DNA from: an uncultured virus (IMG/VR IMGVR_UViG_3300025070_000011)
Taxonomy: Duplodnaviria; Heunggongvirae; Uroviricota; Caudoviricetes
DNA length: 64,000 bases
IMG/VR virus record: IMGVR_UViG_3300025070_000011
Direction: 5' to 3' (one strand)
Both the position numbers and the translations under genes were made by a program. Each line of letters begins with the position of its first letter. The stretch's first letter is position 1. Positions 21,999 to 61,996 of the stretch are shown piece by piece. The notes beneath the pieces were generated by a model that was not told the DNA's origin, did no database searches, and worked only from the letters and a program-made list of their open reading frames with translations.

Positions 21999-22027
21999 AT
22001 TATAATTGTTTTGACACCAGTTGTCAA
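21999..22027 (-). promoter_or_regulatory. perfect-consensus sigma70 promoter, antisense orientation
   Basis: Minus strand reads TTGACA-N17-TATAAT. Confidence 0.7.
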
Positions 22028-22099: not shown

Positions 22100-22690
22100 A
22101 TGGCAAACAAAAAAGAAAACAGACACTACGTCAACAACAAAGAATTTCTGGCAGCGATGACGGAGTATCGTGAAGAACGATTGGCTGCGGAAGAAGCTGG
22201 CGAACCCAAACCGAGGGTGTCGAATTATATTGGTGAGTGTTTTGTTAAGATCGCCAATCACTTGGCGTACAAGTCTAATTTTGTAAACTATACTTTCCGA
22301 GAGGAAATGATTCTCGACGGCATCGAAAACTGTATTACCTATATCAATAACTTTGATCCCGCTAAATCCAAGAATCCCTTTGCATACTTCACTCAGATTA
22401 CCTACTATGCTTTCTTGCGTAGGATTCAGAAAGAAAAGAAACAGATCGATACGAAGAACAAGTATATTCAGAGTCTTGATCTTCACGCCATGATGGATGA
22501 ACTTGGCGGAGATAGTGGTTCCAATGAATTTCTTGAGTACATGAAGAGACAGATTGAAGAGTCTGATAAGGCAAATGAGAAGTTTGCGGAGACCGCAAAG
22601 AGTCAACCAAAACGTAGACCAAAGTACTTCAATGACAAGGAAGCAATGGACTTAGCCAAAGAGAAAATTGAAGCACTAAAAGAGTCTTGA
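22100..22690 (+). CDS. gp55: late-transcription sigma factor gp55
   Basis: HYVNNKEFL, NF.NYT.R.EMI.DGIENC, SKNPFAYFTQI.Y.AF.RRI.KEK motifs. Confidence 0.96.
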   Translation: MANKKENRHYVNNKEFLAAMTEYREERLAAEEAGEPKPRVSNYIGECFVKIANHLAYKSNFVNYTFREEMILDGIENCITYINNFDPAKSKNPFAYFTQITYYAFLRRIQKEKKQIDTKNKYIQSLDLHAMMDELGGDSGSNEFLEYMKRQIEESDKANEKFAETAKSQPKRRPKYFNDKEAMDLAKEKIEALKES

Positions 22691-22715
22691 CATCTGACCT
22701 ACAACCAAGTATAAT
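22687..22715 (+). promoter_or_regulatory. sigma70-type promoter (perfect consensus)
   Basis: TTGACA-N17-TATAAT upstream of the ORF at 22743. Confidence 0.8.
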
Positions 22716-22742
22716 GGTAACAAATACTAGGGGGTATATATT

Positions 22743-23285
22743 ATGAACGCATTTGGACTTGACAAGAATCCTATCGTTGCTGCACGTTTGCACAATGACA
22801 AACACGTTGTCAAAATGAATATTGAATATCCGCAAATGATGTCCACGGCTCACCGTGTGCTTGATGGTACTCAATACCTTGATAAGACTGCCAATGGTAG
22901 GAACATCAAACGATGGCGTATGGATGATGATGTTGTAGAACAAACTCTATACAAGGCATCTCATATCAATCATCCGACTAATATCTGGGTTCGTGCCACT
23001 CATGAAAATTACATGTGGATGTACACTCTATGGTCAGAACTTGCCAAAGAGTATACCTATCGTTATGGCAAACATCATGCCTCTTGGGTCAAACTCCACA
23101 AAGTTCTAGAAAAACCACCGGAGAATATTCGGCCGGGTGGTATCACAATTTTGCCGCAAGCAATGCCAGATGATGTCAAACGTGATGACTTTGTTGAGGC
23201 ATATCAATTGTATTATCGTAAATACAAAGCTCATTTTTCTAAGTGGACAAAACGACCTGTTCCACGATTCATGACTGCTGTATGA
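22743..23285 (+). CDS. DenV / pyrimidine-dimer glycosylase-like family protein
   Basis: DKHVVKM..E..QM.STAH, H.NHP...WVR, EYTYRYGK.H, PQAMPD motifs. Confidence 0.7.
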   Translation: MNAFGLDKNPIVAARLHNDKHVVKMNIEYPQMMSTAHRVLDGTQYLDKTANGRNIKRWRMDDDVVEQTLYKASHINHPTNIWVRATHENYMWMYTLWSELAKEYTYRYGKHHASWVKLHKVLEKPPENIRPGGITILPQAMPDDVKRDDFVEAYQLYYRKYKAHFSKWTKRPVPRFMTAV

Positions 23286-24394
23286 TTCTATGTAAAGAAG
23301 ACTCGCTGTACGCGAGCAAACTAATTATTGATTACTTCTCAAACTTTGAAAGAATTGATGATTATTTTCGTGCAAGAAAAATTGAAAGGGTGAAGGCATT
23401 ACCTCCACCCCTTTTTGGTATGTCTGTTGAAGACGACATGTTTCAAGATTGGGAAACGCCACCCGATGATATGGACTTTGAAGTTGTTCAAATGAACAAC
23501 GAAATCTTTGACCAGATGTTAGAGATGACCGCTTCTTTCTCCCCCGATGAAGCGCCAGGCAAATCTCTAAAACTGGTGGTAAAAGAGAAGAACACAAACA
23601 AAGCCGTTGGGTTCATCAAGATGGGTTCTCCCCTCATCAACTCAAAACCCAGAAATGATTATCTGGGTGGCGTTCCCGATCTTGGAATCTTTAATCAACG
23701 TGCCATCATGGGGTTCAACATTGTCCCCGTACAACCATTCGGGTTCAACTATCTTGGTGGTAAACTTATGGCCGCAATCTGTTGTTCCCATGAGGTTCGC
23801 CGCATGTTGGACAAAAAATATAAAACAGAATTCTGTTTGTTTGAGACCACCTCTCTGTACGGTAACATCAAAGGCGCATCCATGTATGATGGCATGAGAC
23901 CCTTTCTTAGATATAAGGGTGACACGCAGTCACAGTTTTTGTTGACTATGGGTGAGGACATATACTTTCATCTGCGTGATTGGTTTACTGAAAAGAACGA
24001 TGGAGAAGAACTGATACACAAGGGTGCGTCTAGTCGCAAACTAAAAATGCAAACCAAGATGGTTGGTATTGTCAAGGCATCCTTGAAAGAACATGATGCT
24101 GATGAGTACAAAAGATTTACTGACACGATCAAGTCATCTACTGATGTAACAACAAACAAAAGATTTTATATGTCGGAATATGGATACTCCAATACAAAGG
24201 ATGTTCTTCTAGGTAAGACCGACACATTGCAGAAAGCCGAGAACTTTGACAGGTTTGAATTGCCAGAGGTCATCAAGTGGTGGAAGAAACTTGCAACCAA
24301 ACGACACAACAATCTTATGTCCGATGGTAGGATTAGAAAAGAGTTGGAAGTGTGGAACCAAAATACAATTGATAAGATAGATATTATACGATGA
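23282..24394 (+). CDS. DUF4338 / Druantia DruA-like protein
   Basis: P.QPFGFNYLGGKLMA and ETTSLYG motifs resemble DruA-family motifs (recalled, not searched); ATGA-coupled start at 23282. Confidence 0.55.
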   Translation: MILCKEDSLYASKLIIDYFSNFERIDDYFRARKIERVKALPPPLFGMSVEDDMFQDWETPPDDMDFEVVQMNNEIFDQMLEMTASFSPDEAPGKSLKLVVKEKNTNKAVGFIKMGSPLINSKPRNDYLGGVPDLGIFNQRAIMGFNIVPVQPFGFNYLGGKLMAAICCSHEVRRMLDKKYKTEFCLFETTSLYGNIKGASMYDGMRPFLRYKGDTQSQFLLTMGEDIYFHLRDWFTEKNDGEELIHKGASSRKLKMQTKMVGIVKASLKEHDADEYKRFTDTIKSSTDVTTNKRFYMSEYGYSNTKDVLLGKTDTLQKAENFDRFELPEVIKWWKKLATKRHNNLMSDGRIRKELEVWNQNTIDKIDIIR

Positions 24395-24786
24395 AAGTTG
24401 GATTTACTTGTGGTGCATTTGATTTGTTACATGCTGGACATGTAGTAATGTTGGAAGAAGCGGCCAGTCGATGTGATTGGTTGATTGTTGGGTTGCACAT
24501 TGATCCGAGTGTGGATAGACAGAATAAGAATTCACCAGTGCAGTCCGTATACGAAAGGTTTATCCAGCTTGACGGGTTGAAGTATGTAGATGAAATTATT
24601 CCATACTCAACCGAGACTTGCTTGATGGATATTCTTCTCACCAAAAAAATTGATGTGAGATTTGTTGGCGAGGACTATAGAGACAAACGTTTTACTGGTG
24701 ATGAATTGAATATACCTGTTGCATATACCAATAGGAAACATTCCTTTTCTTCTACTAGTTTGCGAGACCGAGTGAAGTTATCATGA
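24391..24786 (+). CDS. cytidylyltransferase (TagD / glycerol-3-phosphate CTase-like)
   Basis: GAFDLLHAGH HxGH motif, VDEIIPY, RKHSFSSTSLR. Confidence 0.9.
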   Translation: MKVGFTCGAFDLLHAGHVVMLEEAASRCDWLIVGLHIDPSVDRQNKNSPVQSVYERFIQLDGLKYVDEIIPYSTETCLMDILLTKKIDVRFVGEDYRDKRFTGDELNIPVAYTNRKHSFSSTSLRDRVKLS

Positions 24787-25775
24787 AAATTGCATGTGCC
24801 AGATTGCGATCCAATGTGAGATACGAGGGCCCATTACAAACTGTGTTGGACAGTTTCTTGGAGAACTATGTTCGTTGGATGGAAGACAATCCCCAACACG
24901 AATATAGAGAGTACAACATTTCGTTTGGCGGCAAACCATCGCGTGACCCAGAAGTGATTGAGTGGGCAGATGTAATTGTGATCCCTAGTGACAGCGAGTT
25001 TCGATATCACGGTGAGTTGCAGATGAATCCAAAAGACCTTGCCAAGTCTCAGTCTCACATGGATAAGATCATCCCTCACTTCAAGGGTAAACATGTAATC
25101 GTATTGAGATCAGATAGGGGTGACACCGAAGAACTCTACCGCAAACACACATTGAAAGGTGAGACAATCAAGTCTTACACCGAGATTGATGAGATAGATT
25201 TCTCTGGCAACATTCATGGTATGAAGTATCATTTCATTAGAGAAAGGTTTGACAATGCCATATCTCAAATGTTTGGTAGGACATACAATCATGACTTTGG
25301 ATATTGGGGTAGAATGAAAGATGGGTGTGATCGCGGCAAAGTATTGAGAAAGATTTACAGAGACCCCGACATCTCCACCGTTCTCATTGGTGGGTTTCCC
25401 TCTGGTATCAAGAGACAGTCTGCGTGGATCAAGGATTGGAATTTGTTGTATCCCAGACTAGAATCTTGCCGTGCGACATTGTGTTTCAACTGGAAAGACC
25501 CTGCTGCAACAACTTCAAGATATGTGGAGGCACTTGCGATTGGCATGATTCCATTTGTCTACAAGAACTATGATGAGAACAATACATACAATATCGATGA
25601 CTGGCAAAGAGTTGATGACTTTGAGGACTTTCAGGCTAAGATAAATATATTGAAAGACCCCACGGCAATGGATTTTTTGCTTAAGCAGTATAGAAAGAAT
25701 TACGAAGAGGTGTTGTTGTCCAAGAATGAATACTATGAGAAATTTTCATACAAAATGAATAGGGCTATTTCATGA
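24783..25775 (+). CDS. GT-B glycosyltransferase resembling T4 DNA beta-glucosyltransferase
   Basis: MKIA N-terminus, Y.GR motif and C-terminal TSRYVEALA.GMIPFV...D...V segment like T4 BGT; similar length; directly before gp47, as a-gt is in T4. Confidence 0.6.
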   Translation: MKIACARLRSNVRYEGPLQTVLDSFLENYVRWMEDNPQHEYREYNISFGGKPSRDPEVIEWADVIVIPSDSEFRYHGELQMNPKDLAKSQSHMDKIIPHFKGKHVIVLRSDRGDTEELYRKHTLKGETIKSYTEIDEIDFSGNIHGMKYHFIRERFDNAISQMFGRTYNHDFGYWGRMKDGCDRGKVLRKIYRDPDISTVLIGGFPSGIKRQSAWIKDWNLLYPRLESCRATLCFNWKDPAATTSRYVEALAIGMIPFVYKNYDENNTYNIDDWQRVDDFEDFQAKINILKDPTAMDFLLKQYRKNYEEVLLSKNEYYEKFSYKMNRAIS

Positions 25776-26824
25776 AGGTTGCACTGGTAACTGACACGCA
25801 CTTTGGTGCAAGGTCGGACAGTCTTGCGTTTGATGCGTATTTTAAGAAATTTTATGATGAGTATTTCTTTCCATTCTTGCAAGAAAATAACATAGATACT
25901 ATTGTACACTTGGGTGATGCATTTGATAGAAGAAAGTTTGTAAACTTCAACACACTCAAATCTTGTAAGGAATACTTTTTTGGGCAGGCAGAACGCCTTG
26001 GTATGACATTGCACATGATTCCAGGCAATCATGATACATATTATAAAAATACCAATGACGTAAACTCATTAGAATTGTTACTGAAGGAATATGACAACAT
26101 CCATGTCTATCCCGAAGTCACGGAGATAACGTTAGATGAAAGAAAAATTTTATTCGTCCCTTGGATATGCAACGACAATTATAGCACTACTATGGATGCT
26201 GTTAGTGAGACAGATGCCAAAGTATGTTTCGGACACTTTGAGTTTACTGGGTTCCAAATGTACAAAGGTGTTCCAAATCCTCACGGAATGGATACTGATG
26301 CCTTTGACCATTTTGATTTGGTATGCAGTGGCCACTTCCATCATCGCAGTAGTAGGGACAACATTACTTATCTTGGCAACCCTTACGAAATTACATGGTC
26401 TGATTATAACGATGACAGGGGGTTCCATCTCTACGATACGGAAACCAATGAATTGGATTTCTTCAAAAATCCGTACAAGATGTTTCACAAACTATTCTAT
26501 AACGATATGGACGGAATCAGCTCTTTTGACCTTTCTAATCTTGTCGGTTCTTGCGTTAAACTCATTGTGGTAAAGAAAGAGAACTTCTTAAAGTTTGACA
26601 AACTGGTAGATTCCCTGTATACTTGTAACTGCGTAGAATTAAAAATCGTAGAAGACTTCTCAGAGTTTGAAGATGATGCGGTTGGCGATGATGTAGAACT
26701 TGCCGTAGATGATACGATGACTCTGCTCCGAGACTATATCGGAAATACGGTCACCGACCTTGATAAAAACAAATTGACATCGGTTGTGCAAACCCTCTAT
26801 GTCGAAGCACAACACATGGAATAA
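25772..26824 (+). CDS. gp47: recombination endonuclease subunit gp47 (Mre11/SbcD-like)
   Basis: DTHFG, LGD.FD.R, GNHD, GHF, SGHFH phosphoesterase motifs. Confidence 0.95.
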   Translation: MKVALVTDTHFGARSDSLAFDAYFKKFYDEYFFPFLQENNIDTIVHLGDAFDRRKFVNFNTLKSCKEYFFGQAERLGMTLHMIPGNHDTYYKNTNDVNSLELLLKEYDNIHVYPEVTEITLDERKILFVPWICNDNYSTTMDAVSETDAKVCFGHFEFTGFQMYKGVPNPHGMDTDAFDHFDLVCSGHFHHRSSRDNITYLGNPYEITWSDYNDDRGFHLYDTETNELDFFKNPYKMFHKLFYNDMDGISSFDLSNLVGSCVKLIVVKKENFLKFDKLVDSLYTCNCVELKIVEDFSEFEDDAVGDDVELAVDDTMTLLRDYIGNTVTDLDKNKLTSVVQTLYVEAQHME

Positions 26825-26830
26825 TAATGT

Positions 26831-28501
26831 ATGATAATGTTTCAAAAGTTGCGATGGAAGAACTTCCTATCCACAGGCAACACTTTTACTGAAATAGATT
26901 TTACTCGCAACCCCACGACACTGATCGTGGGTGAGAACGGCAGTGGTAAGTCCACCGTTCTAGATGCTCTGTGTTTCGGTTTGTTCAACAAACCTTTCCG
27001 CAACATTAACAAACCACAGCTTGTCAACTCTATCAACGGCAAGAAGATGATGGTGGAGGTTGAGTTTCTGGTTGGCAAAAAACAGTATAGGGTCATTCGC
27101 GGAATAAAGCCCAATGTCTTTGAGATATACTGCAATGATGAGTTTCTAGATCAAGATGCCGCACTCAGAGATACCCAGAAGTATCTTGAAGAAAGCATAC
27201 TCAAACTAAACTACAAATCTTTTACACAAATTGTGATCTTGGGTAGCGCCTCTTTCACTCCCTTTATGCAGTTGCCTTCCGCGTCTCGCCGAGAAATAAT
27301 AGAAGACATTCTCGACATACAAATATTCACCACCATGAATGTTTTGCTCAAAGAAAAGATGAACGTCTTGAAAGAAGATATTCGTGTCATTGAGGGTGAA
27401 GTGCAACTTGCCAAACACAAGACCACCGTTCAAAAAGGTTATATTGATACCTTGGAGAAGGATAAAGCCACTAAAATCGACAACATCAAGGAGAACATCA
27501 ATGAGACGACACTCGCAATTGAGGACAATGAGAAACAACTTGCGGAACTCTCGGCAAAGAAGTCAGTACTTGGTGAACCAGAAACGAGAAAACGACAACT
27601 TGATTCCTTTAGAGAAAAGTTTTTCGCTGGAATCAAAAAAACAGAAAAAGAATTAAAATTCTACGAAGAGAATAGTGACTGTCCAGTATGTAAACAAGAA
27701 ATTTGTGAAGACTTCAAACATGATATGACTTCCAGTAAACATGATGAGAGGTTGGTTTTAGAAAAGTCTCTCAAGGGTCTGGAAAAAGAATATGAAGAAG
27801 TCTCTAAAACACTTGAAACTTGGCAGGAACTTTCTGATATCGTATCAACAACACAGTCTGATATAATTGGCCAAGAAAGATATAAGTCAAAACTCAAAGA
27901 CATGTTGGTTGAAGCAGAAAATAATGTCACGGACATTAGTGATGAGAAATTAAAACTAAAAGAGATGGCAAAAGATGTGGTTGCAAAGAATGATATTAAA
28001 TCACATAAGAGTGAACAACAACATTATAATACGGCAGTATCACACCTCTTAAAAGACAGTGGTATCAAAACTAGAATCATCAAACAGTACTTGCCTGCAA
28101 TAAATAAACTGGTCAATAAGTATTTGCAGTCAATGGATTTCTTTGTACATTTTGAGTTGGATGAGAAGTTTAACGAAATAATTAAGTCTCGACATAGAGA
28201 TAGGTTTAGTTACGCTTCTTTTTCTGAGGGTGAGAAACAACGCATAGACTTGGCACTGTTGTTCACATGGAGAACTATTGCTAAGATGAAGAACAGCGCC
28301 AGTACGAACCTGTTAATTCTAGATGAAGTGTTTGATTCTTCACTGGACAACAACGGAACCGACTATGTTATGCAACTACTAAATACTATTGGCGATCAGG
28401 CAAACGTCTTTGTCATTTCTCACAAGGGTGACCAGTTGTTTGATAAATTTAGAAGTCAAATTAAGTTTGAGAAGAAACAAAATTATTCGGTGATGTCATG
28501 A
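26831..28501 (+). CDS. gp46: recombination ATPase subunit gp46 (Rad50/SbcC-like)
   Basis: GENGSGKST, CPVC zinc hook, FSEGEK signature, LILDEVFD. Confidence 0.96.
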   Translation: MIMFQKLRWKNFLSTGNTFTEIDFTRNPTTLIVGENGSGKSTVLDALCFGLFNKPFRNINKPQLVNSINGKKMMVEVEFLVGKKQYRVIRGIKPNVFEIYCNDEFLDQDAALRDTQKYLEESILKLNYKSFTQIVILGSASFTPFMQLPSASRREIIEDILDIQIFTTMNVLLKEKMNVLKEDIRVIEGEVQLAKHKTTVQKGYIDTLEKDKATKIDNIKENINETTLAIEDNEKQLAELSAKKSVLGEPETRKRQLDSFREKFFAGIKKTEKELKFYEENSDCPVCKQEICEDFKHDMTSSKHDERLVLEKSLKGLEKEYEEVSKTLETWQELSDIVSTTQSDIIGQERYKSKLKDMLVEAENNVTDISDEKLKLKEMAKDVVAKNDIKSHKSEQQHYNTAVSHLLKDSGIKTRIIKQYLPAINKLVNKYLQSMDFFVHFELDEKFNEIIKSRHRDRFSYASFSEGEKQRIDLALLFTWRTIAKMKNSASTNLLILDEVFDSSLDNNGTDYVMQLLNTIGDQANVFVISHKGDQLFDKFRSQIKFEKKQNYSVMS

Positions 28502-36610: not shown

Positions 36611-37542
36611 TGATGAATGAATTTCTCTGGGTGGAGAAGTACAGACCGCAGACTATCTCGGAGTGTGTATTACCGAGTAGACTGAAAGAAGTATTTCAAT
36701 CTTTTGTTGACCAGAAAGAAATTCCTAACATGTTGCTCTGTGGTACTGCCGGTACTGGTAAGACCACAGTTGCTCGTGCTCTTTGTAATGAATTAGAATG
36801 TGACTACATCATTATCAATGGATCAGATGAATCTGGCATTGATGTTCTCAGAACAAAGATTAGGGACTTTGCAAGTACGGTAAGTTTCGGTGGTAAGACC
36901 AAGGTGGTCATACTAGACGAGGCAGACTATTTAAACCCCAACTCAACGCAACCAGCTTTGCGTGCCTTTATCGAAGAGTTTTCTAAAAACTGTCGATTCA
37001 TTTTTACCTGTAACTTCAAGAATCGAATCATCGAACCACTTCACAGTCGGACAACGGTGGTTGAATTCAAACTCAAGAAAGATGAGAAACCTCAGATGGC
37101 ATCTGCCTTCATGAGTCGCATCTCAAATATCTTGGGTGAAGAAAACATCGAATACTCCGAAAAGGTTCTCGCCGAACTTTTGATGAAGTACTTTCCAGAC
37201 TATCGTAGGACACTAAACGAACTTCAAAGGTACTCTAGGTTTGGTGCAATCGATGAGGGTATCCTTAGTAACATTGCCGAAGTCAACATGAAGGGGTTGT
37301 GTGACAGTCTCAAAGACAAAGACTTCAAGAAGATGCGGCAGTGGGTTTCTAACAATGTGGATACGGACCCGCAAGGCCTGTACCGTAAAATTTATGACAC
37401 TCTTTTGGAAAGAGTTGTACAGGTGCCGCATCTCGTTCTATTGATTGCAGACTACCAGTACAAGTCTGCGTTTGTTGCCGACCAAGAAATCAATCTGACC
37501 GCATGTCTGGTTGATATTATGGCAAACGTGGATATGAAATGA
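36610..37542 (+). CDS. gp44: clamp loader large subunit gp44
   Basis: LWVEKYRP, GTAGTGKTT, ILDEAD, PLHSR motifs. Confidence 0.96.
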   Translation: MMNEFLWVEKYRPQTISECVLPSRLKEVFQSFVDQKEIPNMLLCGTAGTGKTTVARALCNELECDYIIINGSDESGIDVLRTKIRDFASTVSFGGKTKVVILDEADYLNPNSTQPALRAFIEEFSKNCRFIFTCNFKNRIIEPLHSRTTVVEFKLKKDEKPQMASAFMSRISNILGEENIEYSEKVLAELLMKYFPDYRRTLNELQRYSRFGAIDEGILSNIAEVNMKGLCDSLKDKDFKKMRQWVSNNVDTDPQGLYRKIYDTLLERVVQVPHLVLLIADYQYKSAFVADQEINLTACLVDIMANVDMK

Positions 37543-38330
37543 GGTTGATATCCGGCGATCTATCCACAATTGGCAAAGGTGCCGCTGAAGCAATTGCTGA
37601 AGAAGTTTTGCAATATGGTGTTGTTGTTATACGAGATCAAAACTTGACCCCAGATGAAGAGGTTAGGGTTTGCAAGATGATCGGCAATGTACAAGAGTAC
37701 ACCGATGCGGATAGAACAAAACATATTGCTTGTCATCCAAACATACTGCGGGTCACCGGACAGAAAGATCAACACGGCGAGCCAGGATTGTTTGGACATA
37801 CAAGTGCTCTTGACTGGCATGCCAATCAGGCAAGTAACTATGAACGAGACCCTTTGATCTGGTTGTACGGGAAGAAAAGTACCGAGGGAAGTTGTACCAG
37901 TTGGATCGATATGAGAAGGGCATATGAAGATTTGCCAAGAGATGAAAAGAATCGTCTACGGAAAATAAAGATCACTCTGGGATATAAGTCTGGTTCTTAT
38001 TCCGACAGTCAATTCTTCAAAGAACATCATGCCACTGACAGACCATTTGATCTGGTGTATACTAACGAGTATGGTATTACTGGTTTGTACTTTCCGTTCC
38101 TACAAATTTTTGGTATGGTGGGGATGGATAAAATACAGTTTGAAGAAACGATGTCAATGCTTAAGGAACATGTGTTACAAGATCAGTACAGGTATGACCA
38201 CTATTGGCAAGACGGTGATGTGGTCATCAGTGAACAGTGGTTGACCATCCACAAACGATGGGAGTGTGATTTTATGGAAGATAGAGTACTGCATCGAATC
38301 GCATTTGATTACAGTAAGACAAATATATGA
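37539..38330 (+). CDS. TauD/TfdA-like Fe(II)/2-oxoglutarate dioxygenase with variant H-x-N motif
   Basis: GVVVIRDQ.LT, DWHAN, T.W.DM..AY..LP, H.WQ.GD.VI.....T.H.R, RVLHR. Confidence 0.8.
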   Translation: MRLISGDLSTIGKGAAEAIAEEVLQYGVVVIRDQNLTPDEEVRVCKMIGNVQEYTDADRTKHIACHPNILRVTGQKDQHGEPGLFGHTSALDWHANQASNYERDPLIWLYGKKSTEGSCTSWIDMRRAYEDLPRDEKNRLRKIKITLGYKSGSYSDSQFFKEHHATDRPFDLVYTNEYGITGLYFPFLQIFGMVGMDKIQFEETMSMLKEHVLQDQYRYDHYWQDGDVVISEQWLTIHKRWECDFMEDRVLHRIAFDYSKTNI

Positions 38331-49737: not shown

Positions 49738-49814
<77 letters not shown>

Positions 49815-51644: not shown

Positions 51645-52904
51645 ATGTATAGTTTTTCATCATATTTAAAAGAAGATGCCCAAGGCAAGAATCTTCATCT
51701 AGAACACCTAGAAGACGAAATCATTAATTTCGGAATAGGTGGGGCTAGAGGCGCAATTAACTTTTTACAGTCGTTGCGTGATATGCTTTCTGGTAGTTCT
51801 CGTTCATCTGTTCACATGACTGTGAAATGGGATGGTGCGCCTGCGATATTCGCCGGCGTCGATCCTTCTGATGGAAAGTTCTTTGTCGCAAAGAAATCGG
51901 TATTCAATAAAACACCGTTACTATACAAGACACGACAAGAAATTCAGTCTGACCCCAAACTTCCACAGGCACTCAAACCCACCTTTATTACTGCGCTTGA
52001 TGAATTCAGTAAATTGGGTATAAAGGGTGTCTTACAGGGTGATCTGATGTTTACTGGTAGCAGTCTAGAAACAGATACGATTGATGGCCAGCGATACACC
52101 ACTTTTCAACCTAACACAATCGTCTACGCAATTCCAAGTGGGTCTGAGTTGGATCGACAGATTCGTGCCGCGAAGATCGGCGTTGTGTGGCATACCACAT
52201 ATTCTGGTAACAGTCTACAAAATATGAGAGCGTCATTCGGTGCCAACATATCTGGATTGAAAAAAAGCAGAAGTGTGTGGATGGATGATGCCTCTTATAG
52301 AGACGAAAGTGGTACTGCTACATTTACTAAATCAGAGACCGCATCTATAACTGCGAAACTTGCTGCGGCAGGTAGACTATTTCAAAACATTGACGCGGGA
52401 CAACTAAAGACTTTTCTCCGCTTGCAATCTGCAATGGAGGGTTCTAGTCACACCGCTGGTGCTACACTCAAGACCTACAACAACTCAAAGGTTCGGGTCG
52501 GGAAAAAGGTTACCAATGTCCGACAACATGTGTCTGGATATGAAAAGTGGGTAGAAGAAAAATTCGATGCCGCAATCAACAAATTAAAAACGCCGGCGTC
52601 CAAAGATAAACTCGAAAAGAAAAAGAAAGAGACTATAAGAGAACTCAAAAAGTATGACAATCTGCTTATTAACGTGGTTGGTTTTCAAAACGAACTTGTC
52701 GAAGCAAAAATGCAGATCGTCACAAAACTAAACGGCATCAAACAGCTGATGAATACCTTTGTTCGCACCAAACAGGGATTCAAAGTAACTGCACCGGAAG
52801 GATATGTTGCGATTGACAGGGTTGGTGGCAACGCGGTGAAGTTGGTAGACCGCATGGAATTTAGTTACAACAACTTCACTGCGATAAAAAGTTGGGACAG
52901 ATGA
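51645..52904 (+). CDS. DUF6267-like protein, ATP-dependent ligase/nucleotidyltransferase-like
   Basis: HLEHLED, TVKWDG (KxDG), QGDLMF, EGYV, VKLVDR motifs resembling ligase motifs I, III, IV, V. Confidence 0.65.
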   Translation: MYSFSSYLKEDAQGKNLHLEHLEDEIINFGIGGARGAINFLQSLRDMLSGSSRSSVHMTVKWDGAPAIFAGVDPSDGKFFVAKKSVFNKTPLLYKTRQEIQSDPKLPQALKPTFITALDEFSKLGIKGVLQGDLMFTGSSLETDTIDGQRYTTFQPNTIVYAIPSGSELDRQIRAAKIGVVWHTTYSGNSLQNMRASFGANISGLKKSRSVWMDDASYRDESGTATFTKSETASITAKLAAAGRLFQNIDAGQLKTFLRLQSAMEGSSHTAGATLKTYNNSKVRVGKKVTNVRQHVSGYEKWVEEKFDAAINKLKTPASKDKLEKKKKETIRELKKYDNLLINVVGFQNELVEAKMQIVTKLNGIKQLMNTFVRTKQGFKVTAPEGYVAIDRVGGNAVKLVDRMEFSYNNFTAIKSWDR

Positions 52905-53551
52905 GACTAAGAGAAGAAAAAGAAAAACATATGGTCTTTGCTTTCGGTAGGATGAATCCACCCACTGCCGGTCACAGTAAACTAGTGGATAAGGTTCACT
53001 CCCATGCAAAGTCTATTGGGGCTGACCACAGAGTTATCGTGAGCCACTCTCAAGATAAACACAAGAACCCTCTGACATCTGCACAGAAGACTCGTTATCT
53101 AAAGCACGTTCATCCGCATGGGAAGTTTGAGGCATCCTCTAACTCGCAACCACATGTTTTTGCACACCTTGCAAAGATGCACAAAGAGGGACACACTCAC
53201 GTTACTATGGTTGCCGGTTCTGACCGTGTACATGAATTTCACAAACTGATAAACAAGTACAACGGCAAGAAAGGTAGTCATGGATATTACAAATTCAAGA
53301 GTCTCAAAGTAGTCTCTGCTGGGGCCCGTGATCCAGACGCAACGGGTGTCGCCGGTATCAGTGGAACAAAGATGCGATCACACGCATCCAATAACGATTA
53401 TAAATCCTTTAAGTCTGGTTTACATAAAAACACCTCACATGGCGAGGCAAAAAAACTATTCCATGCTACAAGAAAGGGAATGGGTCTCAAAGAGGGTCAA
53501 ACTAGATTATCATTTGGAGCATTTTTAAATGAACAGAGAAGCAGTATTTGA
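52901..53551 (+). CDS. cytidylyltransferase-like nucleotidyltransferase
   Basis: FGRMNPPTAGH, KNPL, V.GSDR, SAG.RDPD, SGTKMR motifs; ATGA-coupled. Confidence 0.85.
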   Translation: MRLREEKEKHMVFAFGRMNPPTAGHSKLVDKVHSHAKSIGADHRVIVSHSQDKHKNPLTSAQKTRYLKHVHPHGKFEASSNSQPHVFAHLAKMHKEGHTHVTMVAGSDRVHEFHKLINKYNGKKGSHGYYKFKSLKVVSAGARDPDATGVAGISGTKMRSHASNNDYKSFKSGLHKNTSHGEAKKLFHATRKGMGLKEGQTRLSFGAFLNEQRSSI

Positions 53552-54560: not shown

Positions 54561-56897
54561 ATGGAAAAATCATTCAAAGACTTTGTACCACTTGAGGAGG
54601 GCGTAAACGATCCCGCCATCTTCAAAGCGGTATTTTTAGCAGGTGGGCCAGGCAGCGGAAAATCTTTCGTTGTCGGTAAATCCGCACTGACCTCGTTTGG
54701 TCTAAAATTAGTAAACTCTGATACCGCATTTGAGGCTGCACTGAAGAAGGCAGGTCTTACAAAAACACCAGGCGATATTTTCTCCACGAAAGGTCAGTCT
54801 TTGCGTGATCGTGCCACGTTAATAACCAAGAAGAAACAAGAGGGTTACTTAAATGGTAGACTCGGTTTGGTTATCGATGGTACTGGAAAAGATTTTGAGA
54901 AAATCAGACAACAAAAAATAGAGTTAGAAAAGTTGGGATATGAGACTGCAATGATTCTCGTAAACACTGACTTGGACACTGCTGTTGCCAGAGATAAGAA
55001 ACGCGACAGAACTTTGGGTAAGACAAAAGTCGAACCAATGTGGAGATCGGTTCAAAACAACATTGGTAAATTCCAAAACCTATTTGGTAATCAGTTTATC
55101 GTTGTTGATAACACAGATGGTGCCAACTACGAAGGTGGTATCATGTCTGCTTTCAGAAAGATCGGTCAGTGGACAAGACAAACTCCAAACAACCACCTTG
55201 CTCAAAGATGGATTCGCGACCAGAAACAACGGAGAGGTATGAAAGAAGAAAAAGAATTTAAACCTCACTATATGTTCAAGGATGGCAAAAAGGTTTTTGC
55301 GAAAAAAGAAAAAGATCATATAAAACTCATGAAACAGGGTTGGTCTCATGATGACCCCTCTACAAAAGAAATAGAAGAAGATTTACGCAAGTGGTTTGGC
55401 AAGGGGCCAAAAGGTGATTGGGTCCGTGTAGGTACAGACGGAAAGATCAAAGGTGACTGTGCTAGAGAGCCTGGAGAAGGCAAACCCAAGTGTATGCCCA
55501 GATCAAAGGCTCACAGCATGTCCAAAGATGACAGGGCAACATCTGCTAGAAGAAAAAGAAGGAAAGACCCAGTTGCAGATCGTAGTGGTAAGGGCGGCAA
55601 ACCAGTTATGGTAAAGACCGATGTCAAAGAGGCATCAATGTCAGCACAAGATCGTTTTGCAAAAAGACTTAAAGACAAACATGGTATGGACTTGGAAGCC
55701 AAGTTGAAGTACTATGAGGACATGAAGAAAAAATTTCAACAGACATCAGCGAAAACAGTAAAATCAGAAGAGAAGATTGATGAAAAGTGTTGGAATGGAT
55801 ATAAAGAGAAAGGTCTGAAAAAGAAAGGCAATAGGGTTGTTCCGAATTGCGTCCCAGTATCAGAGACTCCGCAGTGGATGCAACCCGCACTGGCAAAGAC
55901 TGTCTATAAAACTCAGTACAAACACGCACACAAACTTCTGAAACAAATTGTAGACCGCAAGAAGAAAGAGGGTGGTGGCAAACTCCGACATGGTGTTGAG
56001 TACTATGCCGCAAAGGTTGCAGGACAGGTTTCGGATAAGGTTGATCCCAGAACTCTTGCTGGTATGTATGAAGATGTGCAGATTAGTAAGTACGAGTGGG
56101 GTAGACCAGAAGGAACTGCGTATTTGAAGGCAGTAACACCTGGCGAGCCAGGAGAAACCACAAAGAAAAACAAGACTACTAATAAGTACCACTACAAGGC
56201 AAAGGTACAAGAGAACTGCGGTTGCGGTCAAGACCCCTGCATCACATACGGTAAGCAAGCAGTGAAAGAACACTGTGGTTGTGAAGAAGATGCCGATTAT
56301 GATGTTTTGGAAATGGACCACCATGTATTCAGTGAGAGAGAAATCGAAGAGATGGAAACTCAGATTGATGGCATGAATTTCGATGACCTAATTGATCTTG
56401 GAATGTATGACGAAGAAGAAGTTGAAGAATTAGATGCTGCGGCAGAGGAAGATGAGGATATTCACGATAACATTGATATCCTTGAAAATCTGTCAATTCA
56501 AGGTAGAATGAAACGTCGATTCAACGCTCGTCGTAACAAACAAAAACTGAAGGTTGCTCGTATGAGGGCATCCAGAAGAGCCGCCGACCCCGCAAGAATT
56601 AAGAGAAGGGCATCTCGCGGTGCAAGAAACATGATTAAAGGTCGCATTGCGAGAGGTAGAGATATCAAGTCTTTGCCACCCGCAGAGAAGGCAAGAATTG
56701 AAGCGATGGCCAAACGTTTTGGTGGTCTGGTTTCTAGACTCGCACAGAGAATGGTCCCGATAATCAGAAAGAACGAACTGAAGAGACTTACTTCAAGAAG
56801 AAGTAAACCACAGAAGGCTAAGAAATATAATCCAGCACAGGCGAAGTCACAGGCGTCTAAACAGAAGGCTAAGAAGTTTAAGGTGAAGAAGAAATGA
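54561..56897 (+). CDS. modular protein: N-terminal P-loop kinase (zeta/AAA_33-like) plus many small basic modules
   Basis: LAGGPGSGKS, NSD..FE, LVIDGTG, A..R...R.R kinase motifs; downstream modules bounded by hydrophobic-X-E. Confidence 0.8.
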   Translation: MEKSFKDFVPLEEGVNDPAIFKAVFLAGGPGSGKSFVVGKSALTSFGLKLVNSDTAFEAALKKAGLTKTPGDIFSTKGQSLRDRATLITKKKQEGYLNGRLGLVIDGTGKDFEKIRQQKIELEKLGYETAMILVNTDLDTAVARDKKRDRTLGKTKVEPMWRSVQNNIGKFQNLFGNQFIVVDNTDGANYEGGIMSAFRKIGQWTRQTPNNHLAQRWIRDQKQRRGMKEEKEFKPHYMFKDGKKVFAKKEKDHIKLMKQGWSHDDPSTKEIEEDLRKWFGKGPKGDWVRVGTDGKIKGDCAREPGEGKPKCMPRSKAHSMSKDDRATSARRKRRKDPVADRSGKGGKPVMVKTDVKEASMSAQDRFAKRLKDKHGMDLEAKLKYYEDMKKKFQQTSAKTVKSEEKIDEKCWNGYKEKGLKKKGNRVVPNCVPVSETPQWMQPALAKTVYKTQYKHAHKLLKQIVDRKKKEGGGKLRHGVEYYAAKVAGQVSDKVDPRTLAGMYEDVQISKYEWGRPEGTAYLKAVTPGEPGETTKKNKTTNKYHYKAKVQENCGCGQDPCITYGKQAVKEHCGCEEDADYDVLEMDHHVFSEREIEEMETQIDGMNFDDLIDLGMYDEEEVEELDAAAEEDEDIHDNIDILENLSIQGRMKRRFNARRNKQKLKVARMRASRRAADPARIKRRASRGARNMIKGRIARGRDIKSLPPAEKARIEAMAKRFGGLVSRLAQRMVPIIRKNELKRLTSRRSKPQKAKKYNPAQAKSQASKQKAKKFKVKKK

Positions 56898-58403: not shown

Positions 58404-60008
58404 ATGGATTACGTTGACGTACTATTATTTACGGGACTAGGTTCGTATTCACACGGCGTACAGGCTGCAACAGAAGAACCTAGTTACGAAACCAGAAGTC
58501 GAACTTCTGGCACCTACCGAATTGCCACATACCTAAGAGATGAATTCGACTTTAACGTAGAAGTTGTCGATTTTATGTTTTCTTGGCGGTATGAAGAACT
58601 CGTTGAAATTGTAGATAGCAGGGTCGGACCAGACACTAAGATGGTGGGTGTGGGTGGGCTCTTCTTTCTTGCAGCCCCGAACATTGTTAATATATTCAAA
58701 TACGTTAAAACCAATTATCCCAATGTGACCACTTGTGCTGGAAGTCAGGACATCTGGTCACTTATGAAAATACCAAACATCGATTATTACTGTATTGGTT
58801 ATGGTGAACTCGGCATGAAGGCCATAATACAGGGTAATCCAGAAGTAAAACAATTTACGCCCTTTGAAGGCGGACCTACATTTCCAGTAGTAGATTGTTG
58901 GGAAAACTCAAAGTATCATGCGTACCCTTGGTCTGAATTGCCAATCCGATACGAGAAAAGAGACTTTATTAAACCCTACGAAGTTTTGTCTATGGAAACT
59001 TCTAGAGGATGTCGATTCGCCTGTTCCTATTGCAACTTCCCGATTCTGGGTGTGAAGGGTGACTATACTCGTTCACAAGATTGTTTTGAGAGAAACATAA
59101 AAGAAAACTATGACCTTTGGGGAACAACAGAGTACATCATTACTGATGATACTTTCAATGACTACATTCCAAAAATTAAAAAGTATGGTGATGTTGTTCA
59201 GTCATGTGATTTTAAACCAAACTTTACTGGGTACATTCGCGCAGACTTGATGACTCAACGCAAGGGTGACCTAGAAGAACTTGCTAGAATGAGATTCAAT
59301 AGTCATCTCTATGGGATCGAATCAACAAATCATGCAAGTGCCAAATCAATGGGAAAGGGTGGTGACCCAAAGAAGATTCTAGATGGCATTCTAAAAGCTA
59401 AAGAATATTTCTTAAAAGAGAATGGGTTTTATCGGGGGGAGATAAGTTTGATTTGGGGGTTGCCGTACGAGACTCCAGAAACTCTAGACTGGACCTTCAA
59501 GTGGTTGGATGATAATTGGCAGTCTCAGGCAGTATCGATGTTCCCTCTACATATTATGAGAGACAATGGAATGACGCGACCCAGTGATCTTACCTCTAAG
59601 AAAGACAAGTGGTACAAGACCCCGCAACCAATGGAAATCGAACCAGTAGGCGACAGACTAGATCACATCTACGCCGATCCAAATGTCGATGATTATTTCA
59701 AGAGAAGAATCAAACTCCTTGAACCAGATTTGAATAGTCCACACTGGCACCATTTGACATATATGTGGAAAAACGAACACTATGATGCGGTCAGTGCATA
59801 TATTGGTGTGCAGAACATGTTATTTGGTCATGATAGATATTGGGATAGGGGTGTACCCATTTTTAACCAATCAAACTGGCAAGGAGTGGGGTTTAGTAAG
59901 GCCGATATGTTGAAAAATTTCAGAGAATTGCCTAGTATGATGAATCCACCCGAAGAAATGGTAAAATCAGCTATAGAAGAGTACAAACAGAATAAGTTAT
60001 CTTTATAA
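58404..60008 (+). CDS. radical SAM protein with B12-binding-like N-terminal domain
   Basis: ETSRGCRFACSYC (CxxxCxxC), DDTFN, GIES, I.GLPYET; G.GE motif. Confidence 0.88.
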   Translation: MDYVDVLLFTGLGSYSHGVQAATEEPSYETRSRTSGTYRIATYLRDEFDFNVEVVDFMFSWRYEELVEIVDSRVGPDTKMVGVGGLFFLAAPNIVNIFKYVKTNYPNVTTCAGSQDIWSLMKIPNIDYYCIGYGELGMKAIIQGNPEVKQFTPFEGGPTFPVVDCWENSKYHAYPWSELPIRYEKRDFIKPYEVLSMETSRGCRFACSYCNFPILGVKGDYTRSQDCFERNIKENYDLWGTTEYIITDDTFNDYIPKIKKYGDVVQSCDFKPNFTGYIRADLMTQRKGDLEELARMRFNSHLYGIESTNHASAKSMGKGGDPKKILDGILKAKEYFLKENGFYRGEISLIWGLPYETPETLDWTFKWLDDNWQSQAVSMFPLHIMRDNGMTRPSDLTSKKDKWYKTPQPMEIEPVGDRLDHIYADPNVDDYFKRRIKLLEPDLNSPHWHHLTYMWKNEHYDAVSAYIGVQNMLFGHDRYWDRGVPIFNQSNWQGVGFSKADMLKNFRELPSMMNPPEEMVKSAIEEYKQNKLSL

Positions 60009-60011
60009 ATA
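60004..60011 (+). promoter_or_regulatory. late promoter TATAAATA
   Basis: Exact motif before 60047. Confidence 0.7.
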
Positions 60012-60046
60012 TATTGAAACGTCAGATTTATTTTGGAGTATACACA

Positions 60047-61996
60047 ATGCCGGTAGAAAGAAACATCCGTGACATATTACAGTCTGGAGAATCTACCCTA
60101 TTAGAAGCTGATATGTCAAGAAGACTTGATATGCTGGTTCGACAGGGTATGTTGCCAGTTGCAAAACTGCCACTGTTAAAACGTGGTCTTGAAAAAATGA
60201 AATCTGGTAAAGTGGGTACTCCGCAAGAAAGAGATGCTGTTAGTGGTGTTCTTGACCAAATGATGTATATCATACTTGGTGACGATACAGTATTCCAGAA
60301 AGCACGACAACACACTCAAAAGAATCGCTATCAGACCGAAGAGAGTGAGATCGAAACGGCCGAAGAGAGTGATGATGTAACCTTGAATGAATGGGAAGAA
60401 CTGTTGTTGGACATTCAGACTCTTGAAGAGAAGAATGTCCCAACAAACCCGAAGTTGTGGTCAAAGTACAAGTCACAGGCGAAGGCAAAATTCGATGTGT
60501 ATCCTTCTGCTTATGCCAATGGTTGGGCTGCCAAGATGTATAAAAAAGCCGGTGGAAGTTGGAAATCAGTTAGTGAAGATGTAGAACAGGTTGATGAAGT
60601 ATCATCTAAAATGTTGGCAAGTTACCAACAAAAGAACGAGACTGATCGTGAAAAGGCGGTTGGTACTCAGGATGTAGATAAGATTAAAAAACGTGTGAAG
60701 GGTGACCGTCTTGCAAGTAAGAAGAGATATTCATCCGTTTACAAGAAGTATGGTTTATCTACTGCCAAGGTTCCTGCTACTAACGAAGAAACGGACCTAG
60801 AAGAAAAGGTTGAAGACATGGAAATGGGTGAAGTCATCAAGGACTTCCAAAAGTCTGATGCACCCCAATTTAAGGGCAAGTCTAAAGAAAAGAAGAGAGA
60901 GATGGCCATCGCTGCTAAACTCTCCAAAGAAGAGACCGAAGAGGAAATTACCGTGGACATGAACAATCCGTTTGCCGCCGCTAAGAAATCAAAACTCGAC
61001 GAGTACAAAGTTAAGAATCCTGGCTCAGACGCAGAAGATTCTCGACAACGCGCCAAGAAGGCCGCCGAGAGACTTTCTCGCAAAGTTTCAAAGACTGAGA
61101 GGGAAACTGATCCGGGCCTTGACGAAGTTAAAAAGGTTGATTGTCCAGAGTGTAAGGGTAAAGGTTGTTCCGAATGCGATGACAAGGGATATCAACTCAA
61201 AGAGTATATCACTGGTAAACAAGTTAAGATGGCGAAGGGTATTGCAAATGACCCCCGTCACAAGGGTGGTGACATGACGGGTGCCGCAAAGAAGATGGAA
61301 AAGATTAAGAAAGGTCTTTCTAATCACCCAGGCGCTCAGAAGGCTCTCCGCACTGCAAACGAAGGTATGTTCGATGACTACTCCGATGAAGAGTTGGATG
61401 AGTTGATCGAAATGGAATTCAAGGCAAAGTTTCAGGCGATGCTGAAGAAATCAGGTAAGTCTCTTGGTTCTATGTCCCCAGAAGAGAAAAAGAAATTCTT
61501 CAACAGTGTAGATGCCGCACACAACGCAAAGAATGAAAACTACACCATGAAGAATGATTATGCAAAGTCTTCTGGTGCTATGTCAAAGGACAAGGCAAGT
61601 CACAACACTGGTGGGATGCGTATCTCAAATAAAGATGCTGGTGCTGCCAAGGCAAGACTCATGAAGAAGAAGGGTATCACTGAAGATGCCGCTGCGGATG
61701 CAAAGAGAGACTATGATGCGGATGATAAGAAAGGTCTTGCTCCTACTAAGTCGGACAAACCCGCAAAGGTCAGTGACGCATCAAACGCAAAAGAAATCGA
61801 ACACATTGTACCTCAGATGCGAAAAGCAATTACCGTTGGTAAAGAGGTTCAATTCCAAGATGGGAAGACGCACAAGATCAGTAAAGGACACGCTGCAAAG
61901 TTCTTGAATAAGTACATGAACAGCAAACCCGCTGACAAACAAGCAATGCAAACGTCTGCCCACAAGAGCCACGATCATTTTAAGAAGCACGTATAA
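60047..61996 (+). CDS. modular K/E-rich protein (putative internal-head polyprotein)
   Basis: GGAG SD; basic modules (e.g. PTNPKLW...YPSAYANGW...YKKAGGSW; CPECKGKGC..C) separated by acidic hydrophobic-X-E linkers. Confidence 0.75.
   Translation: MPVERNIRDILQSGESTLLEADMSRRLDMLVRQGMLPVAKLPLLKRGLEKMKSGKVGTPQERDAVSGVLDQMMYIILGDDTVFQKARQHTQKNRYQTEESEIETAEESDDVTLNEWEELLLDIQTLEEKNVPTNPKLWSKYKSQAKAKFDVYPSAYANGWAAKMYKKAGGSWKSVSEDVEQVDEVSSKMLASYQQKNETDREKAVGTQDVDKIKKRVKGDRLASKKRYSSVYKKYGLSTAKVPATNEETDLEEKVEDMEMGEVIKDFQKSDAPQFKGKSKEKKREMAIAAKLSKEETEEEITVDMNNPFAAAKKSKLDEYKVKNPGSDAEDSRQRAKKAAERLSRKVSKTERETDPGLDEVKKVDCPECKGKGCSECDDKGYQLKEYITGKQVKMAKGIANDPRHKGGDMTGAAKKMEKIKKGLSNHPGAQKALRTANEGMFDDYSDEELDELIEMEFKAKFQAMLKKSGKSLGSMSPEEKKKFFNSVDAAHNAKNENYTMKNDYAKSSGAMSKDKASHNTGGMRISNKDAGAAKARLMKKKGITEDAAADAKRDYDADDKKGLAPTKSDKPAKVSDASNAKEIEHIVPQMRKAITVGKEVQFQDGKTHKISKGHAAKFLNKYMNSKPADKQAMQTSAHKSHDHFKKHV

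Follow-up and report, generated by a model that had tools for sequence, protein, structure and literature searches.

A DruA-family protein and a distant relative of T4 DNA beta-glucosyltransferase form a candidate DNA-modification module in phages

An uncultured, T4-like ocean phage of the Caudoviricetes (IMG/VR record IMGVR_UViG_3300025070_000011) carries a cassette of four genes that looks like DNA-modification machinery, here analyzed within a 64,000-nucleotide (64-kb) stretch that we refer to as the window. We read the cassette in this way because its glycosyltransferase (ORF4) is apparent kin of T4 DNA beta-glucosyltransferase (BGT), its DruA-family protein (ORF2) has a predicted GNAT fold that nominally best matches Mom, the two genes form a conserved pair, and genes of related islands point in the same direction. 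The phage probably decorates its own DNA in a way that is not yet described, because a BGT relative is present without a visible route to the usual target base of BGT. We found no published description of the module in the literature.

Gene order and promoter

The cassette is preceded by gene 55, which encodes the late sigma factor (22100–22690; phrog_234, E 1.1e-60), and followed by the SbcD/SbcC-like genes 47 and 46 (25772–28501; phrog_100, Metallophos), all on the + strand. The initial annotation had placed it at the position of a-gt in T4, between genes 55 and 47, and this is correct. The G+C content of the cassette equals that of its flanks. An early sigma-70-type promoter of perfect consensus (TTGACA-17-TATAAT, 22687–22715, + strand) overlaps the stop codon of gene 55 and, as had been claimed, matches at 12 of 12 positions. 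Perfect TTGACA-N16-18-TATAAT sites occur four times within the window, whereas 100 shuffles gave 0.04 on average. The promoter is conserved in relatives: across eight aligned sequences the -35 CTTGAC is invariant and the -10 element is TATAAT in six, with a variable spacer. The four ORFs had also been described as chained by ATGA overlaps, and all four junctions, from ORF1 through ORF2, ORF3 and ORF4 into gene 47 (start at 25772), read ATGA. We take ORF2 and ORF4, joined by ORF3 in this lineage, to make up a mobile, early-transcribed module.

The glycosyltransferase ORF4

ORF4 (24783–25775, + strand; 330 aa) has no family matches of its own in sequence searches, Pfam included. Based on its predicted structure (pLDDT 94.6) and on a family HMM, it appears to be a GT-B glycosyltransferase and a true but distant relative of BGT. 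The top Foldseek matches are T4 AGT and BGT (E about 2e-7). In VIA comparisons BGT ranks first (Z 19.5, rmsd 3.7, 296 of 330 residues aligned, 14% identity), followed by AGT at Z 16.5 and by the next GT-B enzymes at Z 15.0 or less. A grouping of ORF4 with LPS or protein glycosyltransferases, which would have spoken against the initial reading, was not seen; BGT stands 4.5 Z above the envelope GT4 enzymes, and no TagF-like enzyme is among the best 50 structural matches listed. When the family HMM (42 members) was compared with the PDB, BGT was the sole significant match (E 0.001, 21.6 bits, over the C-terminal 86 residues). With hhalign, ORF4 aligned to BGT over 161 columns (Prob 51.5, E 1.5e-4), versus Prob 5 for AGT. 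None of the 42 family members matches the BGT Pfam family, and seven have a weak match to Glyco_trans_1_2. The resemblance to T4 BGT seen in the initial annotation is upheld by the structural ranking, and the PDB profile search points the same way.

The block T244-x-R246-x-x-E249 of ORF4 aligns with T267-x-R269-x-x-E272 of BGT. R246 is nearly invariant and E249 invariant in the family, and their counterparts R269 and E272 are the residues that we take to be the nucleotide-sugar-binding Arg and Glu of the BGT C-terminal domain. D114 of ORF4 is also nearly invariant; in BGT the catalytic base is presumably Asp100, in the N-terminal domain.

The DruA-family protein ORF2

With its ATG at 23282, ORF2 (23282–24394, + strand) has 370 aa, a length equal to that of its homologs. 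It scores 34.9 bits against the Pfam DruA family PF14236 (cut-off 27), with residues 69–192 matching profile positions 55–181 (127 of 297 positions covered), and it matches phrog_19197 over its full length. PADLOC, applied to the four cassette proteins, matched it to DruA1 (E 1.7e-5). The DUF4338/DruA-like gene proposed from the window is thus confirmed by a DUF4338 match above the cut-off. DUF4338 is termed a GNAT domain in the available text of PMC10853773.

The ORF2 model (pLDDT 88.6) has helical extensions at both the N and the C terminus. Based on VIA, Mom (8bv8) ranks first both among the top 1000 Foldseek chains (Z 10.3 versus 9.3 for the next, 185 residues aligned) and among 48,161 representatives (Z 10.0 versus 9.3, 169 residues aligned), and these alignments are the longest in either search; the leads over other GNATs, 1.0 and 0.7 Z, count as a tie under the VIA rule. 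The Mom family (PF25680) gave no Pfam match in ORF2 at E 0.1 or better, and hhalign of the ORF2 profile returned Prob 0.3 against Mu Mom and Prob 0.15 against a five-member Mom alignment. Two ORF2 paralog families share 30 invariant columns and conserved catalytic-type blocks. ORF2 is predicted to be a DruA-family GNAT, with the DNA-modifying Mom as its nominal best fold match.

Linkage of ORF2 and ORF4

ORF2 is the core of the module, and not the further modifier or reader for which it had been taken. It is present at 72 of 80 ORF4-anchored metagenomic loci and in 26 of 29 clusters formed at 90% ORF4 identity. Six of the eight loci that lack it lie on truncated contigs that break off <900 bp upstream of ORF4, and in the remaining two (L038 and L083) a Pfam Mom gene lies immediately 3' of ORF4. 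The two genes overlap or are separated by at most 50 bp at 19 of the 72 loci, and by at most 700 bp at 34 more. The pair spans at least five genome neighbourhoods. It adjoins gene 47 at 35 of the 80 loci and lies elsewhere at 45, for example between DNA polymerase and uvsX. The 55–47 and polymerase–uvsX sites are the two T4 slots of a-gt and 42/b-gt.

ORF2 is often found without ORF4: both ORF3 and ORF4 are missing from 14 of the 32 ORF2-anchored loci whose flanks each reach at least 2.5 kb. Mom and ORF2 occur together at one locus (L045), and therefore they are not simple substitutes. Related islands contain genes for TAGT, Mom, GT4, FkbM, GmrSD_N, MT-A70 and PD-(D/E)XK nucleases.

ORF3 and ORF1

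ORF3 (24391–24786, + strand; 131 aa) is a predicted HxGH cytidylyltransferase of the TagD/ECT/CCT type, in agreement with the initial annotation. It scores 57 bits against PF01467 (cut-off 21), its HxGH motif is H-A-G-H (residues 13–16), and its PDB matches are ECT 3elb (E 5e-23) and TagD 1coz (E 4e-14, over the full length). Among NCBIfam families, rfaE domain II matches best; ORF3 is far under the equivalog cut-offs both for this family (72.3 versus 181.5 bits) and for TagD (59.4 versus 165.4). It had been thought to make the donor for the glycosyltransferase, but it is not a fixed partner. ORF3 is an optional member of the module, present at 43 of 80 ORF4 loci and in 11 of 29 clusters; it also occurs beside ORF2 without ORF4, and 139 records of unrelated phages, diverse in type, hold its homologs without the module.

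ORF1 (22743–23285, + strand; 180 aa; phrog_624, E 2.3e-46) may be a distant DenV/Pyr_excise-like DNA glycosylase, a weak assignment made from sequence, and is a neighbour of the module. Pyr_excise (PF03013) is found in 6 of 11 ORF1 homologs (best E 4.6e-6) and is carried by 13–33% of members in its Atlas neighbours. The window protein has no Pfam match at E 1 or better, and its family profile has no match in the PDB. The earlier DenV-like label is weakly confirmed, because the Pfam support comes from homologs and Atlas neighbours and not from ORF1 itself. ORF1 is present at 23 of 80 ORF4 loci and accompanies the module in the 55–47 slot only.

The acceptor base

No hydroxymethylase is among the annotated ORFs of the window, as stated initially. 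The search beyond the window that had been suggested was done in relatives, and the ThyA-type hydroxymethylase (PF00303) is found in none of five near-complete genomes (completeness 90% or more in three); the control for this search was positive in 10 of 14 genomes. Tet_JBP was matched in none of the five relatives in a search whose control was also without a match. The window contains a TauD-family dioxygenase (37539–38330), and in Pelagibacter phage HTVC008M genes for 2OG-Fe(II) oxygenases lie next to genes 47/46 and the clamp loader.

Proposed function and alternatives

DNA as the target, the base that is modified, the donors and the step order are all inferred. We see about an even chance that the module performs post-replicative hypermodification of the phage's own DNA, with the GNAT making or marking the acceptor and the BGT-like enzyme adding a sugar. 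By the example of Mom, ORF2 would acylate or aminoacylate a base in DNA, giving an acceptor or a first mark. ORF4 would add a sugar from a nucleotide-activated donor, and this sequence of steps would replace the hydroxymethyl-pyrimidine step that seems to be missing in these phages. Where present, ORF3 would make a CDP-activated small alcohol or sugar phosphate, by which the donor pool may be widened or changed. More tentatively, we propose a specific form of this chemistry that dispenses with 5-hydroxymethyl and 5-hydroxy pyrimidines: the DruA-family GNAT would attach an acyl or aminoacyl moiety to a base of duplex DNA, possibly from a charged tRNA as in Mom, and the BGT-like enzyme would glycosylate the adduct; in lineages with ORF3 the adduct may receive a CDP-activated alcohol in place of the sugar.

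A role at the host envelope seems unlikely to us. ORF3 would activate a sugar or polyol, ORF4 would transfer it to LPS, capsule or lipid and so alter the surface of the infected cell, and ORF2 would acylate the same glycan. Such a role has already been proposed for pelagimyophage glycosyltransferases and rfaE-like genes in the available text of PMC7029224, which also reports a restriction-modification system in only one of >100 SAR11 genomes. That rfaE domain II tops the NCBIfam matches of ORF3 (72.3 bits) favors this role, but the score is far under the equivalog cut-off, as is that for TagD. The weak Glyco_trans_1_2 matches in 7 of 42 ORF4 relatives and the GT4 and FkbM genes in related islands, which are common in polysaccharide loci, also speak for it; yet the top structure and sole significant profile match of ORF4 is a DNA enzyme, 4.5 Z above envelope GT4. 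Furthermore, the fixed partner of ORF4 is a DruA/Mom-type GNAT and not a sugar-synthesis gene, the module is placed amid replication and recombination genes with an early promoter, and its neighbours include TAGT, GmrSD_N, MT-A70 and nucleases.

Similarly doubtful is that the cassette places two independent DNA marks, linked only because both belong to a modification island. ORF4 would glycosylate a base directly, or one derived from another route such as a 2OG-Fe(II) oxygenase, as in base J, and ORF2 would place a separate Mom-type mark. The TauD-family dioxygenase, the HTVC008M oxygenases, the frequent occurrence of ORF2 alone and the presence of both Mom and ORF2 at L045 fit this arrangement. 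However, ORF4 is rarely without an adjacent DruA/Mom-type gene (ORF2 at 72 of 80 loci, and Mom at the two untruncated exceptions), the two genes overlap or lie close together at most of the 72 loci, and Tet_JBP is absent from the five relatives, in a search with a silent control. Less probable still is a target other than DNA, in counter-defence or host takeover, where the GNAT and glycosyltransferase would act on a protein of host or phage or on RNA such as tRNA, or where the DruA-like product would serve as a decoy against a Druantia-like host system. We found no published account of a DruA mechanism in the literature, the main substrates of GNATs are proteins and small molecules, and Mom itself binds tRNA according to the accessible part of PMC13219725, all of which leave room for such targets. 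Against a decoy, the 30 invariant columns in catalytic-type blocks argue for an enzyme, and the kinship with BGT and the DNA-type neighbours favor a DNA target.

If the more tentative chemistry without hydroxymethyl or hydroxy pyrimidines is correct, T4-like phages of the ocean would carry this GNAT-then-glycosylation system in their thousands, and the DruA of Druantia would itself be a nucleic-acid-modifying enzyme. In the sources available to us, and in T4, glycosylated phage DNA bases start from hydroxymethyl or hydroxy pyrimidines, via ThyA homologs or TET. A BGT relative paired with a GNAT instead therefore indicates a different acceptor chemistry. Ocean viromes abound in the module genes (5871 ORF2 homologs and 637 ORF4 relatives), and therefore an unknown base could bias sequencing and affect studies of SAR11 and cyanobacterial phage–host systems. 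The module offers a concrete, testable way into DruA, the still unexplained product of the first Druantia type I gene. HTVC008M, which has an ORF4 homolog and two DruA-like genes, is a carrier in culture, and therefore the question is open to direct testing.

Comparison with known systems

ORF2 resembles the DruA of Druantia type I in that it is above the Pfam cut-off and matches PADLOC DruA1. The available part of the Phold preprint reports that six Synechococcus phages have DruA-like structures, S-PRM1 among them, and we find that S-PRM1 encodes an ORF2 homolog of 47% identity. Unlike in Druantia, the gene is a phage gene and the match is partial (residues 69–192). No DruB-E partners are among the annotated ORFs of the window, where the helicases are of the UvsW and gp41 types only.

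TagD with TagB/TagF carries out glycerophosphate transfer in teichoic acids. There, too, a small TagD-like cytidylyltransferase adjoins a GT-B-fold transferase, and 1coz aligns with ORF3 over its full length, but the nearest structures to ORF4 are DNA glucosyltransferases and ORF3 is optional.

Sugars are put on DNA bases after replication by TET/5mC-oxidase pathways with TAGT and by the ThyA-homolog 5-hydroxycytosine arabinosylation of RB69 and DLP3; the latter, in the available text of PMC13326640, includes a donor-making nucleotidyltransferase. TAGT-family genes also occur in islands related to the module. As far as the available sources describe them, these pathways start from 5mC oxidation or a ThyA homolog, whereas neither was found in five relatives (with the TET control silent).

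Mu Mom (PF25680; 8bv8) is a Gly-tRNA(Gly)-dependent N6-adenine dsDNA aminoacyltransferase with R111 and S124 as essential residues, and it acts alone, no glycosyltransferase partner being mentioned in the accessible portion of PMC13219725. ORF2, in contrast, is without sequence-profile similarity to Mom and, at 370 aa, carries helical extensions at both ends. The two are alike in a predicted GNAT core with extra helical elements and in the nominal first rank of Mom in both structural searches, and a true Mom-family gene sits beside ORF4 at the two loci without ORF2.

In T4, glucosylation of hydroxymethylcytosine requires the gene 42 dCMP hydroxymethylase together with a-gt and b-gt, and structures of BGT are available (1bgt, 1qkj and 1j39). 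The module differs in that ORF4 has 14% identity to BGT and is without a Pfam family, in that a ThyA-type hydroxymethylase is found in none of five relatives, and in that it has a GNAT as fixed partner, an enzyme absent from T4. The likeness lies in the predicted BGT fold of ORF4 (Z 19.5), in the T-x-R-x-x-E block kept from BGT 267–272, and in position: the module occupies the a-gt slot between genes 55 and 47, and in relatives the slot that T4 gives to 42/b-gt, with gene 43 and uvsX on either side.

Results

The last gene of the cassette, ORF4 (24783-25775), has no family match in Pfam, PHROG, NCBIfam or PADLOC, and it has 637 metagenomic relatives (147 representatives at 50% identity). The initial annotation had described it as a GT-B enzyme resembling T4 beta-glucosyltransferase (BGT), and its structural model (pLDDT 94.6, built from a 42-sequence alignment) bears this out: its best Foldseek matches, with E values near 2e-7, are the alpha- and beta-glucosyltransferases of T4. 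In the VIA structural comparison, BGT leads with Z 19.5 (296 aligned, rmsd 3.7), ahead of the alpha-glucosyltransferase (AGT; Z 16.5) and of generic GT-B enzymes, which reach at most Z 15. BGT is also the sole significant match (E 0.001) of the family profile against the PDB, with T244-x-R246-x-x-E249 of ORF4 aligned to BGT 267-272, and hhalign gives BGT Prob 51.5 over 161 columns and AGT Prob 5. Glyco_trans_1_2 is weakly matched by 7 of 42 relatives. A fold search of BFVD returned mainly unnamed phage proteins and, at rank 9, an entry named DNA beta-glucosyltransferase, which is not decisive. No TagF-like enzyme appears among the 50 VIA matches listed for ORF4, which leaves room for kinship in fold. 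Based on the model and the Foldseek, VIA, profile and hhalign results together, ORF4 is predicted to be a distant BGT homolog.

A single-protein query gave 189 confirmed ORF4 loci in IMG/VR, of which the best 80 were analysed; for ORF2 (23282-24394), 591 loci were confirmed and again the best 80 were analysed. Each set covers only the 80 nearest relatives, often on short contigs. Among the best 80 of 189 ORF4 loci, 72 contain ORF2; of the eight lacking it, six have <900 bp upstream of ORF4 and the other two (L038 and L083) carry a Pfam Mom-family gene directly 3' of ORF4. When the same 80 loci are clustered at 90% ORF4 identity, ORF2 is found in 26 of 29 clusters and ORF3 (24391-24786) in 11 of 29. 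Again within these best 80 of 189, 35 loci adjoin gene 47, with ORF3 in 31 of them, and 45 lie away from gene 47, with ORF3 in 12.

The dependence between ORF4 and ORF2 runs in one direction only. Among the best 80 of 591 ORF2 loci, 50 have neither ORF3 nor ORF4, 12 have both, 10 have ORF4 only and 8 have ORF3 only; for the 32 of these with at least 2.5 kb on each side, the corresponding counts are 14, 9, 5 and 4. In several loci with ORF2 'alone', the next gene encodes a 447-aa protein for which 10-24% of the members of its Atlas neighbours belong to GT1/GT4 families; we treat this as a lead only. Pelagibacter phage HTVC008M, the closest named relative of the cassette proteins (cyanomyoviruses come second), has an ORF4 homolog (gp104) after gene 46, a DruA paralog two genes further and the ORF2 ortholog after the DNA polymerase gene; its DruA-like proteins are gp106 and gp122. 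The cyanophages S-PRM1 and S-SSM7 are examples with ORF2 only.

The DUF4338/DruA match claimed for ORF2 scores above the Pfam DruA cut-off, but it extends across residues 69-192 only. ORF2 has 5871 relatives, mostly of 370 aa, and its model (pLDDT 88.6) combines a GNAT core and helical extensions. Its Foldseek matches are weak (best E 3.4e-4), with the phage Mu DNA modifier Mom at rank 49. In VIA, Mom (8bv8) comes first both among the 1000 chains ranked highest by Foldseek (Z 10.3 over 185 aligned, next 9.3) and among 48,161 representatives (Z 10.0 vs 9.3), margins that amount to ties, and hhalign detects no similarity between ORF2 and Mom. We dropped a P-R-N motif common to ORF2 (123-125) and Mom (119-121): the ORF2 copy follows strand 3 of the model, the Mom motif is expected in the loop linking strand 4 and helix 3, and hhalign leaves the two unaligned. 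DUF4338 is labelled a GNAT domain in PMC10853773, and according to the Phold preprint six Synechococcus phages have DruA-like folds. Marine T4-like phages commonly carry a second family of DruA-like paralogs (425-458 aa, 3766 members; for example L140:2621-3997 and L001:6569-7711), which has no member in the window. The 419-aa protein at 51645-52904 is a DUF6267 protein and, at BLASTP E 8.1, was discarded as a candidate DruA paralog.

ORF3 is a 131-aa HxGH cytidylyltransferase with ethanolamine-phosphate cytidylyltransferase and TagD as its nearest solved structures, and it falls far below both the TagD and rfaE equivalog cut-offs. Homologs were found in a diverse set of 139 phage records, and neither in Vibrio phage Va1 nor in Caulobacter phage Cr30 does their context include an ORF2 or ORF4 relative. 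For ORF1 (22743-23285; phrog_624), the DenV-like label is weakly confirmed: Pyr_excise is matched by 6 of 11 homologs, and the Atlas neighbours concur. Its invariant E28 aligns, by eye, with the Glu that serves catalysis in T4 endonuclease V. ORF1 is most likely a UV-repair-type glycosylase that shares only the operon.

The perfect sigma-70-type promoter proposed upstream of the cassette is present at 22687-22715 (TTGACA-17-TATAAT, 12 of 12 positions), and the four ORFs and gene 47 are indeed chained by four ATGA overlaps. Across eight related loci the -35 element is invariant and the -10 element is TATAAT in six while the spacer sequence drifts, a pattern that indicates a working promoter. 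The only terminator-like site inside the cassette on the + strand is a 5-bp stem within ORF2. The G+C of the four ORFs (0.39-0.42) is the same as that of the flanks. Perfect TTGACA-TATAAT sites number four in the window, vs 0.04 expected; the others are at 21255, 43697 and 21999-22027, the last on the - strand in the gap before gene 55, though the called genes are all on the + strand.

All sizeable ORFs of the window lie on the + strand, and they include a T4-type structural, replication and recombination set (portal, gp23, UvsW, gp55, gp47/46, gp45, gp44/62, gp43, UvsX and gp41). Megablast of the cassette DNA against named phages gave no match; the closest record to the window is a 43.7-kb fragment, identical across the 5 kb compared. 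In run X7, genes 55 and 47 are connected on one DNA contig (22426 to 25895), which omits 3468 bases and has one side of 35 letters; this contig may represent a cassette-free relative or an assembly artefact. One oligo-dT RNA library yielded four short contigs on 23256-23585, 24376-24627 and 25726-25920, which fall on portions of ORF2 and ORF3 and on the junction of ORF4 with gene 47. They hint weakly at transcription of the cassette, DNA carry-over being another possible source.

Elsewhere in the window, 51645-53551 encodes the DUF6267 protein (419 aa, E 5e-102) and a weak cytidylyltransferase-like protein (PF01467, E 2e-4; phrog_3041), which as a pair match both halves of a single PHROG (phrog_455); a lysozyme comes next. 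A 778-aa protein (54561-56897) combines an N-terminal AAA_33/zeta-toxin-like kinase domain with several unknown PHROG domains. At 58404-61996, flanked on both sides by unknown ORFs, a radical SAM protein (534 aa) with a weak sub-threshold match to a B12-binding domain precedes a 660-aa protein without family. There is one tRNA-Arg (anticodon TCT; 49738-49814).

The absence of a base hydroxymethylase from the window, noted initially, holds for PF00303, which was also found in none of five near-complete relatives (the control was positive in 10 of 14 genomes). Tet_JBP was likewise found in none of the five, a result without weight because the controls were also silent. The published glycosylated-cytosine pathways consulted depend on a ThyA homolog (PMC13326640) or, reportedly, on TET (TET/TAGT papers). 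A TauD-family 2OG-Fe(II) dioxygenase (37539-38330), which could conceivably act as a base hydroxylase, is encoded in the window between genes 44 and 62 of the clamp loader. In some cyanophage-like relatives (such as L118) the same slot holds ORF2 and the 447-aa protein.

Discussion

The most economical model for the ORF2-ORF4 module is post-replicative DNA hypermodification. The GNAT (ORF2) would set a first mark or provide the acceptor, ORF4 as the BGT-like enzyme would add a sugar and ORF3, where present, would supply a CDP-activated donor. The chief alternative, envelope modification, is the role put forward for pelagimyophage glycosyltransferases and rfaE-like genes in PMC7029224, whose authors also argue that restriction systems are rare in SAR11. 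Most of the genes that accompany the pair point to chemistry on nucleic acid and not on the envelope: TAGT lies beside it in six loci and Mom in three, and other neighbours include GT4 glycosyltransferases, FkbM methyltransferases, IMPDH/GMP-reductase, GmrSD_N proteins, MT-A70, one PD-(D/E)XK nuclease and radical SAM enzymes. The public sequencing runs consist of assembled contigs only and therefore say nothing on base modification.

GmrSD_N (DUF262) proteins also lie within ORF2-containing islands (L091:4988-6430 and L094:5359-6819), which suggests a nuclease telling modified from unmodified DNA.

A literature search confined to the papers themselves turned up no account of the module. Mom, a Gly-tRNA-dependent aminoacyltransferase, acts on N6-adenine of dsDNA (PMC13219725); that paper makes no mention of DUF4338, Druantia or glycosyltransferases. 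Besides the site next to gene 47, the hypermodification candidate module is found in the gene 43-uvsX gap, among clamp-loader genes, next to Hsp20/AhpC and, as an inverted island, amid structural genes. In T4, a-gt lies between genes 55 and 47, as initially claimed, and 42/b-gt lies between 43 and uvsX. Since these are the sites in which it is found here, the module uses both T4 glucosyltransferase slots.
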